Shown piece after piece: positions 41,486 through 43,574 of a stretch of 64,000 nucleotides of DNA. Origin of the DNA: Escherichia coli. Its GTDB lineage: Bacteria; Pseudomonadota; Gammaproteobacteria; Enterobacterales; Enterobacteriaceae. Within the stretch, counting starts at the first letter, position 1; every line of letters starts with the position of its first letter. The position numbers and the translations under genes are program-made. Under the pieces are notes generated by a model that searched no databases, was not told the origin of the DNA, and saw nothing but the letters and a program-made list of their open reading frames with translations. The DNA is taken from NCBI RefSeq assembly GCF_030013595.1, contig NZ_CP122768.1, one strand, 5' to 3'.

Positions 41486-41494
41486 ACTCCCTAT

Positions 41495-41527
41495 GCCCGA
41501 TAACATTTTGCTTATCGGGCATTTTTA
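41495..41527 (+). terminator. Rho-independent terminator shared by lgoT and convergent tsr
   Basis: GCCCGATAA-cattttgc-TTATCGGGC followed by ATTTTTAT. Confidence 0.7.
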
Positions 41528-41533
41528 TGGCGA

Positions 41534-43198
41534 TTAAAACGTTTCCCAGTTCTCCCCGCTATCTGCCACGGCCATTTTACGCGGCGTAGCTGGCGTCACG
41601 GTTTTTACTACAGCCGATGTTTCACGCTGCTGTTGCTGCTGTTGCTGAATCCGGAACACTGCCACAGCTTCGGTCAGGCGACTGGCCTGCTCTTCCAGCG
41701 CGGCAGCGGCGGCGGCAGATTCTTCCACCAGCGCGGCGTTCTGTTGAGTTACCCGGTCCATCTCAGCAACCGCTAATCCAACCTGATCGATACCACGGCT
41801 CTGCTCATCAGAAGCAGAAGCAATTTCGCCCATAATGTCCGTCACGCGGGTCACGGCACTGACAATCTCCGCCATTGTTTCCCCTGCGCTTTCGACCAGC
41901 GTAGAGCCAACATCTACTTTCCCCACCGAGTCTTCAATCAGGCTTTTAATTTCACGAGCCGCCTGAGCGCTGCGCTGGGCCAGATTACGCACTTCACCCG
42001 CGACCACCGCAAAACCGCGCCCTTGCTCACCCGCGCGCGCTGCTTCAACCGCCGCGTTCAAAGCCAGAATATTGGTCTGGAAGGCAATGCCGTCAATTAC
42101 GCTGATAATATCGGCGATTTTCTGCGAACTGGTGGAGATATCGCGCATAGTCTGCACCACGTTATCTACCACTTTGCCGCCGCGTTGCGCCGTTTCGGAA
42201 GCACTTAACGCCAGGTGGCTGGCCTGACGCGCATTTTCGGCGTTCTGCTTCACCGTTGCGGTCAGTTGCTCCATGCTGGCTGCCGTCTCTTCCAGCGAAG
42301 CGGCCTGTTGCTCGGTGCGCGAAGAGAGATCGTTATTGCCGGTGGCGATTTCGCTGGCACCGCTATAGATGGCATTGGCCCCGTTGCGCACATCACCGAC
42401 GGTACGCATCAGCTCTCCCTGCATATGGCGCAAACTCTCTGCCAGTTGCCCCATCTCATTAGAGCCATCCACCTCAATCGGTTTCACCAGATCGCCGCCT
42501 GCAATATGACGAATGCTGTCAATCAGGCGATTCATTGGCGCTACCAACGAGGCTTTAATACCGAACCAGACGGCGAAGATGACCGCCAGTACGACGATCA
42601 TCACGCCCACCAGAATCCACATCGCCTGGCTGTAGGAGGCATTATTATCGCTGACGGCGATATCATAGAGCCGATCGTTTTGCTCCATGTAAGCCACATA
42701 CTGCTTCTCGAAACCGTCCTGATATCCCTGGGTTGGCTGATCAAAGAACTCGTTGATTTTGCCTGCACCTAACAGTTGGATCAGCTCCGCCAGCGCATTG
42801 TGATAAATATCGTAATTACGTTTGATCTCTGCCGCTGCGGCGGTGCTCTGACGCGGGTCACGCGGCAACGCTTCGTAATCCGCCCAGTTTTTTTCCGCCT
42901 GTTTCAGCGAAATACTGGCACTCTGCATTAGCTCAGCAACGGTTGAACCGCTACCAATATTATTCTGATCCATCATGTAGCGGATACCCGCGCGGTTGAG
43001 GGTGTTACGCGTCTGCAACAACGCAACCCAGCTGCCATTCAGCGTGGATTGCTGCTGGCGAATGGTTTGTAAAACAGTGAAATTTTCTTTGTCATTCTTT
43101 AAGGCATTAAAGAACAGACCGCCTGATGTCAGTTGTAAAAGGCCAAAAACGGCCAAAACCAGCAGTAAGCTGGTCACAATTTTGATACGTTTTAACAT
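41534..43198 (-). CDS. tsr: Serine chemoreceptor Tsr (MCP I), with a 7-Gln tract before the C-terminal tail
   Basis: 554 aa; near-identical to K-12 Tsr as recalled; CAG/CAA tract at 41627-41647 encodes Q7. Confidence 0.95.
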
Positions 43199-43574
43199 GG
43201 TTTCTCTTTCCTGTGGACCGATGCAAGATTTTCGGCCTGGAAAGGAAAAACTTTATGAATATCCCGCGGAGATTACGCCGAGTAATTTTATTCACACTCT
43301 GAATTTAAAAAACCATTATTTACATAAATTATTCACAATATAAATATGTGATATGAATCACATATTTATCGTCACTTAAACGACGCCTTTGCCGCTCAAC
43401 CGCAAAACTGACCGCTTACATCCCTAAAATAACCACTCAGTTATTTACCTTACTTTACGCGCGCGTAACTCTGGCAACATCACTGCAGGATAGCGGTCAA
43501 TTTACCTCCTCAAACGCAACGCAAACCTAGAACGGCTTCGGCCAACTATTAATCAATACATGCCAGGTTTTACT

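Follow-up and report, generated by a model that had tools for sequence, protein, structure and literature searches.

An in-frame 9-bp variable-number tandem repeat near the 3′ end of tsr in Escherichia coli

The serine chemoreceptor gene tsr of one Escherichia coli genome (contig NZ_CP122768.1, of which a 64,000-nt stretch, here called the window, was analysed) encodes a run of seven glutamines shortly before the C-terminal pentapeptide NWETF. What kind of sequence is this run, how does it vary among strains, and does its length matter to the receptor? The gene occupies positions 41534..43198 of the window on the minus strand and is an open reading frame (ORF) of 554 codons plus a stop codon. 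We find that the glutamine tract is an in-frame coding variable-number tandem repeat (VNTR) with a 9-nt unit; the window holds the two-unit state of (CAGCAACAG)n + CAG, with n = 1 to 4. Overall, we consider it quite likely that this 9-bp repeat gains and loses whole units, that the window carries the modal state of ancestral length, and that the variation is nearly neutral. The tract is thus a fresh example of a familiar type of variation, and the seven-glutamine allele of the window is in itself ordinary.

The minus strand of positions 41647..41627 reads CAG CAA CAG CAG CAA CAG CAG and encodes Gln518-524. On the coding strand, ATT (Ile517) stands before the tract and CGT (Arg) after it. The ORF translation gives a receptor of 554 aa with the C-terminus SGENWETF, and the seven-glutamine run in a 554-aa Tsr reported in an earlier reading of these letters (the sequence-only reading) was thereby confirmed. 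That reading had described the run as a CAG/CAA trinucleotide tract. Tandem Repeats Finder reported a period of 9 over positions 41626-41647, with 2.4 copies and 100% matches; read with period 3, the tract gave 78% matches, CAA being every third codon. The longest pure CAG run is two codons. The true unit is therefore 9 nt, and 'trinucleotide tract' is the weaker description. The tract consists of 2.33 perfect copies of the unit CAGCAACAG, all on the minus strand: unit 1 (Gln518-520) at 41639..41647, unit 2 (Gln521-523) at 41630..41638 and a trailing partial unit, CAG (Gln524), at 41627..41629. K-12 is without unit 2, the alleles called Q10 and Q13 below have one and two additional units, and the trailing CAG is common to all alleles. 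From the composition of Tsr, 9e-6 glutamine runs of at least seven residues are expected by chance, and none of 200,000 shuffles gave one.

The tract of K-12 MG1655 is exactly one 9-nt unit shorter than that of the window. Its Tsr reads CAGCAACAGCAG, with the codons CAG CAA CAG CAG (Q4, one unit), and has 551 aa, in agreement with the approximately four glutamines that the sequence-only reading gave for K-12. Two units (Q7) were read directly in the window and in strain 144. Three units, (CAGCAACAG)x3 + CAG (Q10, 557 aa), were read in HS, KSC64, PapRG-04-4, SC455 and ET350; these alleles were located by means of a synthetic Q10 query, the matches spanning 130 nt in one piece. A synthetic Q13 query identified four units (560 aa) in three genomes, RM14723, A13 and Z1323HEC0355. 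The tract states in E. coli are 1, 2, 3 and 4 units, corresponding to Q4, Q7, Q10 and Q13, to 12, 21, 30 and 39 nt and to receptors of 551, 554, 557 and 560 aa.

Lengths between and beyond these were also sought. Synthetic Q8 and Q6 queries gave no match at ≥99% identity in ~5,380 genomes, and their best matches were to Q7 alleles, with a gap of 3 nt in the alignment. In the same genomes, the Q16 and Q1 queries resulted solely in two-piece matches to existing alleles, and the series therefore comprises one to four units in this genome collection. Metagenome contigs, which are independent of the complete-genome set, were scanned with the pattern GTGTTCCGGATT-N{3,33}-CGTGAARCATCGG. At least 120 contigs matched, and 119 of the 120 listed were tsr. 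The tract in these 119 listed contigs was pure Q7 in 75, Q4 in 28, QQQQQHQ (with CAT as the His codon) in 11 and Q10 in two; QQHQ, QQQQQQQQHQ and a Q7 with a synonymous CAA were found once each. No tract other than 12, 21 or 30 nt was present in the 119 contigs (15, 18, 24 and 27 nt were absent). Among the matches listed, the sole non-tsr match to the flank pattern, at 1534-1586 of Ga0209395_1042349 (L098), had a 28-nt gap with stop codons in the tsr frame, and we rejected it as a tsr allele because it is a chance match in unrelated sequence.

The reading frame was kept and the protein ended in WETF in 71/71 full-length alleles, and likewise in all Q10 and Q13 alleles. A phase-variable contingency locus was rejected on account of the 9-nt unit and the in-frame state of every allele. 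A triplet (CAG) slippage tract was also rejected, as there is no pure triplet run and no single-triplet length variant was found in the ~5,380 genomes or the 119 contigs. The earlier suggestion of a slippage site therefore holds in so far as the tract is length-variable; it does not hold as triplet slippage, given that only 12, 21, 30 and 39 nt were seen and that Q6 and Q8 were not found.

How common is each state? In the ~5,380 complete genomes, seven codons accounted for ~75%, Q4 for ~21%, Q10 for ~3% and Q13 for <0.1%, as estimated from BLAST identity bands and 60-row samples and not from a reading of every genome. The 119 metagenome contigs gave 73% for seven codons, 24% for Q4 and 2.5% for Q10, with no Q13. 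A 121-nt query centred on the tract of the window matched 4,059 genomes at ≥95% identity, and every sampled row in this band spanned the same length. A Q10 query on K-12-type flanks, against which a seven-codon allele cannot exceed 93.1% identity, matched 155 genomes at ≥95%, and all 60 listed rows spanned 130 nt. The remainder, 1,115-1,165 genomes, consists of Q4 and a few divergent alleles. Consistent with this estimate, a K-12 query matched 1,270 genomes at ≥95%, with Q10 alleles that matched in two pieces counted among them. Carriers of Q4 include K-12, BL21 and MC4100, and carriers of Q10 include HS and LF82. The Q7 allele of the window is the majority, ordinary form of the tract, and the Q4 of K-12 is a short minority form. 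The sequence-only reading had contrasted the seven glutamines with about four in K-12. Of the two, the seven-codon allele is not the unusual one: most strains (~75%) share the seven codons and K-12, with Q4, does not, and the outgroups described next point to seven codons as the ancestral length and to the K-12 form as derived.

The direction of change was read from Leclercia, Enterobacter, Citrobacter, a divergent Escherichia and Salmonella (E. albertii and E. fergusonii were not identified among the matches listed). Between Ile517 and the next Arg, the orthologs listed carry an interrupted segment of seven codons: QQDQQKA in Leclercia, QQEQQKA in Enterobacter cloacae, QHDQQRA in Citrobacter and QQAQQRQ in the divergent Escherichia (95% protein identity). 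Database fragments of Salmonella enterica read QQEQQRA in subsp. arizonae and QQQQQRA in subsp. enterica. Since other genera and the divergent Escherichia all carry an interrupted seven-codon segment, we take seven codons to be the ancestral length. Within E. coli, strain PSS-10 has QQEQQRQ, encoded by CAG CAA GAG CAG CAA CGC CAG; an imperfect 9-nt tandem is already present here. Two further E. coli forms of seven-codon length, QQQQQHQ and QQQQQQH, are intermediates and fit a path CGC → CAC/CAT → CAG. On this comparison, pure Q7 arose by substitution and Q4, Q10 and Q13 by loss or gain of whole units; the Q4 of K-12 is accordingly a derived deletion allele. The interrupted outgroup segments showed no length variation in multiples of 9 nt at the tract position in the aligned orthologs. 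We infer that perfecting of the repeat made the tract length-unstable. As a side observation, the QQQQQRA of Salmonella enterica, compared with QQEQQRA in arizonae and with most genera, represents a parallel Glu-to-Gln change that lengthened the glutamine run.

The position of the tract bears on its possible function. Residue 517 has been identified as the last conserved position of the receptor, followed in K-12 by a tail of 34 residues (PMC4692393), and the flexible chain of Tsr has been given as 30 residues counted from I517 (PMC10561060). In our alignment, conservation among 21 non-E. coli orthologs was 70-100% through residue 517 and <60% from residue 518 on; it recovered at the Arg-Lys pair 540-541 and then at NWETF, which was invariant in 26/26 aligned orthologs. 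The codon of Ile517, the residue that closes the conserved part of the kinase-control module and anchors the tether, lies at 41648..41650. It is followed by the non-conserved C-terminal tether at 41552..41647 (residues 518-549, that is 32 residues, or 33 counted from I517 as in PMC10561060) and by NWETF at 41537..41551, where CheR and CheB dock (PMC4692393); all three features are on the minus strand. The tract begins at residue 518, directly after the last conserved residue, and its earlier placement in the linker before NWETF was correct. In an AlphaFold2 (AF2) model, the predicted local distance difference test score (pLDDT) was <50 for residues 517-554, as fits disorder. Because conservation ends at residue 517, the published boundary is the same residue and AF2 confidence drops there, we place the glutamine units at the putative proximal end of the CheR/CheB tether. 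Natural Tsr tethers would then be 30, 33, 36 or 39 residues long. Polymorphism is approximately threefold higher in the linker than elsewhere in tsr (29% versus 10% segregating sites in 71 alleles), and Tsr ranges from 553 to 564 aa among genera.

How could whole units be gained and lost? An ancestral interrupted segment of the kind seen in PSS-10 would be an imperfect 9-nt tandem, which the point substitutions GAG → CAG and CGC → CAC/CAT → CAG would perfect. Thereafter, a misalignment by one unit during replication or repair would keep perfect pairing, over 12 nt in Q7, whereas a 3-nt misalignment would mispair CAA with CAG. The gain and loss of whole 9-nt units would follow from this difference. 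Q4 keeps an overlap of just 3 nt and is predicted to re-expand rarely.

Several observations bear on whether unit number changed more than once. A last unit marked by CAT (His) was seen in metagenome contigs with one, two and three units (QQHQ, QQQQQHQ and QQQQQQQQHQ). Likewise, single haplotypes of the C-terminal tail carry more than one length: the K-12 tail occurs with Q4 (K-12) or Q10 (HS), the window tail with Q7 or Q10 (PapRG-04-4), the REAS...SEE tail with Q4 (BEN2908) or Q7, the VVKNV tail with Q4 or Q7 and the MAMADSEE tail with Q10 (SC455) or Q13 (RM14723). In seven genomes, Q4 sits between flanks that are one single-nucleotide polymorphism (SNP) away from those of the window, and unit number also differs between genes separated by 2-5 SNPs over 1,641 nt. 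When 71 full-length tsr alleles were placed on a neighbour-joining tree with the tract masked, unit number required at least 16 changes, compared with 21-26 for shuffled tips (1,000 shuffles). Recombination confounds such a count, and we therefore did not take the 16 changes as independent events but compared them with SNPs of matched frequency. The distinction between Q4 and the rest required 10 changes, compared with 5.9 on average and at most 9 for 17 frequency-matched SNPs; the distinction between Q10 or longer and the rest required 6 changes, against a mean of 3.0 and a maximum of 6 for the matched SNPs. Together, these observations lend modest support to recurrence, that is, to gain or loss of units on several occasions.

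A number of points weigh against this reading, besides the estimated nature of the frequencies given above. The loci in the tree were partly chosen for being Q10 or Q13, and the excess of unit-number changes over matched SNPs is only ~2-fold. Intragenic recombination is heavy, with 35% of informative site pairs in tsr failing the four-gamete test, so that much of the apparent homoplasy could reflect allele shuffling and not new slippage events. Four separate assemblies of HS were all Q10, so that the tract is stable over the timescales of laboratory work. One may go further and propose that there is no recurrent mutation site at all: each length would have arisen once, in three or four events, and the few ancient alleles would have been spread by homologous recombination. 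The four-gamete failures suit this proposal, as do the 2-9 changes that ordinary SNPs each need on the gene tree and the phylogenetic signal that tract length retains (16 changes versus at least 21 in the tip shuffles). It leaves unexplained that the 10 changes for Q4 exceed those of every one of the 17 matched SNPs. For the CAT-marked unit to stand at one, two and three copies, crossovers would also have to fall within a tract of ≤30 nt, and the markers that lie within 60 nt of the tract on either side are identical despite the change in length (VVKNV tail with Q4 and Q7; K-12 tail with Q4 and Q10). We regard spread by recombination alone as unlikely, while granting it an appreciable chance. 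We give practically no credence to the idea that the lengths reflect faulty assembly or sequencing of a low-complexity tract. Draft assemblies can miscall repeats, and some short database fragments do have odd indels nearby. However, the tract is only 12-39 nt and lies well inside single reads, every allele is in frame and ends in NWETF, and the same lengths recur, at concordant frequencies, across thousands of finished genomes and again among metagenome assemblies of independent origin. The concordance between two independent data sets, together with the agreement of the four HS assemblies, led us to reject this explanation.

Given a repeat that gains and loses units, what would its length do? 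The most likely answer is that the polymorphism is nearly neutral. We favour this because no other part of the gene is as polymorphic as the linker, linker length drifts from genus to genus, tethers act in trans and the listed hosts show no ecological pattern. At most, copy number would have a small quantitative effect on the reach of tethered CheR and CheB along the methylation helices. An effect of length on adaptation, which the sequence-only reading had suggested through the tethering of CheR and CheB, is plausible by analogy with Tar and probably small. For Tar chains of 22, 29, 34 and 46 residues, the peak of tethered CheR shifts linearly by 0.128 +/- 0.048 nm per residue, or by 0.233 in an alternative fit (PMC10561060). 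Extrapolated from Tar, one unit would correspond to ~0.4-0.7 nm and the step from Q4 to Q13 to ~1.2-2.1 nm; adjacent methylation sites are spaced by ~1.05 nm (PMC10561060). These values, set side by side, are what would make tether length a candidate for selection, with copy number adjusting the reach of CheR and CheB and altering the speed or precision of adaptation by niche. Engineered Tar tether lengths do alter adaptation behaviour (PMC10561060), which speaks against near-neutrality; several length alleles persist at 3-75% across lineages, and unit number is more homoplasic than matched SNPs. Against selection of this kind, there was no association with host or source in the listed rows, isolates from humans, livestock, pets, rodents and the environment being present in each length class. 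Within tsr, it is the linker that evolves fastest, and its length is free among genera, which suggests relaxed constraint. Moreover, the action of tethers extends in trans to 5-7 neighbouring receptors (PMC4692393), and mixed arrays buffer the effects of a single receptor (PMC10561060). We judge adaptive tuning to be rather improbable. In its fuller form, the VNTR would be a natural tuning knob that shifts the sampling of the five methylation sites of Tsr by CheR and CheB, with lengths maintained by selection across lineages and niches; this we hold to be slightly more doubtful again. If it were true, the rate or precision of adaptation to serine and other Tsr signals would be altered, and the K-12 reference would be an atypically short-tethered receptor. 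Finally, the glutamine run might extend the last helix of the cytoplasmic bundle, with copy number shifting the tether anchor or the packing near HAMP. The AF2 model draws a helix by DSSP from 431 to 528, straight through the run, and outgroup segments such as QQEQQKAR are rich in helix-favouring residues. That model is a mediocre one of the monomer only (mean pLDDT 69.6, predicted template modelling score 0.39), and with pLDDT <50 from residue 517 the modelled helix there carries no confidence. Conservation stops at the same residue, and the electron paramagnetic resonance work, as far as it is cited in PMC7390727 and PMC10561060, describes the tail of Tar as unstructured. We think a helix extension very unlikely.

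Near-neutral gain and loss of whole units may be compared with better-known repeat systems. Like phase-variable contingency loci, the tract provides repeat-mediated heritable variation in a gene for interaction with the environment. Unlike them, it leaves every allele in frame and of full length, does not switch on and off and is stable across laboratory re-sequencing. Since all alleles are in frame and the four HS assemblies agree, the tract does not show hypermutability of the kind known from contingency loci. In-frame bacterial coding VNTRs, such as those used as typing loci in multiple-locus VNTR analysis (MLVA), consist of short perfect units whose copy number varies without breaking the frame, presumably by strand slippage. 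Compared with these, the tsr tract has a very low copy number (1-4) and a modest apparent rate. Eukaryotic polyglutamine tracts are runs of mixed CAG and CAA codons in which interruptions relate to stability. The tsr tract resembles them in that its interrupted ancestral forms are without length variation and its purified forms vary; it differs in its mutating unit, 9 nt instead of 3, in the absence of single-triplet variants from the genomes and contigs searched, in its tiny size and in having no context of aggregation or toxicity. In the literature searched, we found no description of a length polymorphism in tsr, nor tsr listed as a VNTR locus.

K-12 Tsr is among the most intensively modelled signalling proteins, and 30 residues have been taken as "the" Tsr tether in quantitative work. 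K-12 Tsr shares with the window the locus btsT-tsr-lgoT, the domain architecture and NWETF, with 28 nucleotide differences over the gene. It differs in having one unit, Q4 and a 30-residue tether, compared with two units, Q7 and 33 residues in the window, whose tail has two further substitutions relative to K-12, A to T and E to G. The tether of 30 residues in Tsr, compared with 34 in Tar, has been tied to the shorter mean methylation-site distances of Tsr (PMC10561060). The value of 30 in this argument is peculiar to the K-12-type allele, a minority form; in the majority form it is 33, and natural alleles reach 39. Most E. coli have a 33-residue Tsr tether, close to the 34 of Tar, which calls for caution against an adaptive reading of the K-12 value. 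The tsr alleles resemble the engineered Tar tethers (PMC10561060) in that the length of a presumably unstructured chain between the receptor body and NWETF is changed, and the Tar work offers a quantitative model of how CheR reach depends on this length. The Tar variants were produced in the laboratory, where the chain was truncated or given insertions at its distal end in 5-12-residue steps, whereas the tsr alleles are natural, occur in Tsr and change the proximal end in 3-residue steps over 30-39 residues. They form a natural allelic series ready for tests of models of tethered-enzyme adaptation.

The identity of the gene is plain. The Pfam domains of the window Tsr are, in order, TarH (1-176, E 9e-55), HAMP (217-263, 2e-12) and MCPsignal (327-484, 2e-62). 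In 5,382 of 5,426 complete E. coli genomes, the match of the 121-nt query falls within a gene that is annotated as tsr. The window has the K-12 gene order btsT-tsr-lgoT, which is also found in the pig isolates HCP5S3_I2 and LCP30S3_I5, both 100% identical to the window over 12 kb around the tract. The gene is tsr, orthologous and syntenic with that of K-12; serine sensing and docking of CheR and CheB by its product are predicted from this orthology alone.

The surroundings of tsr vary among strains. The gene 3′ of tsr (window positions 41486-41533 and downstream) differs by lineage: it is lgoT, encoding a transporter of the major facilitator superfamily (MFS), in the window, K-12, HS and others, and a permease pair of a tripartite ATP-independent periplasmic (TRAP) transporter in BEN2908, SC455 and all three Q13 strains. 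The lineage-specific junction lies only ~45 nt past the tsr stop codon. On the other side, btsT diverges 361 nt upstream of tsr in the window (43199-43559). In strains 144, HS, PapRG-04-4 and KSC64, hpaR, encoding the regulator of the homoprotocatechuate operon, is found upstream of tsr and ends ~120 nt before it. The hpa cluster beside tsr appears to be an insertion/deletion polymorphism.

Other length changes occur within tsr itself. A second short repeat, of period 6 and GCGGCA-like, is present at window positions 41700-41718 and encodes an alanine run in the conserved last helix. This run is mostly conserved among orthologs, with occasional substitutions by Ser or Val. One E. coli Tsr of 553 aa (P0048) is short of one Ala, and several short database fragments have 4-5 Ala; such variants may be broken genes or assembly errors. 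Two rare E. coli variants carry tandem in-frame duplications: one of 16 aa in HAMP brings the protein to 570 aa (P0014), and one of 14 aa in the first methylation helix, equal to exactly two heptads, brings it to 568 aa (P0078).

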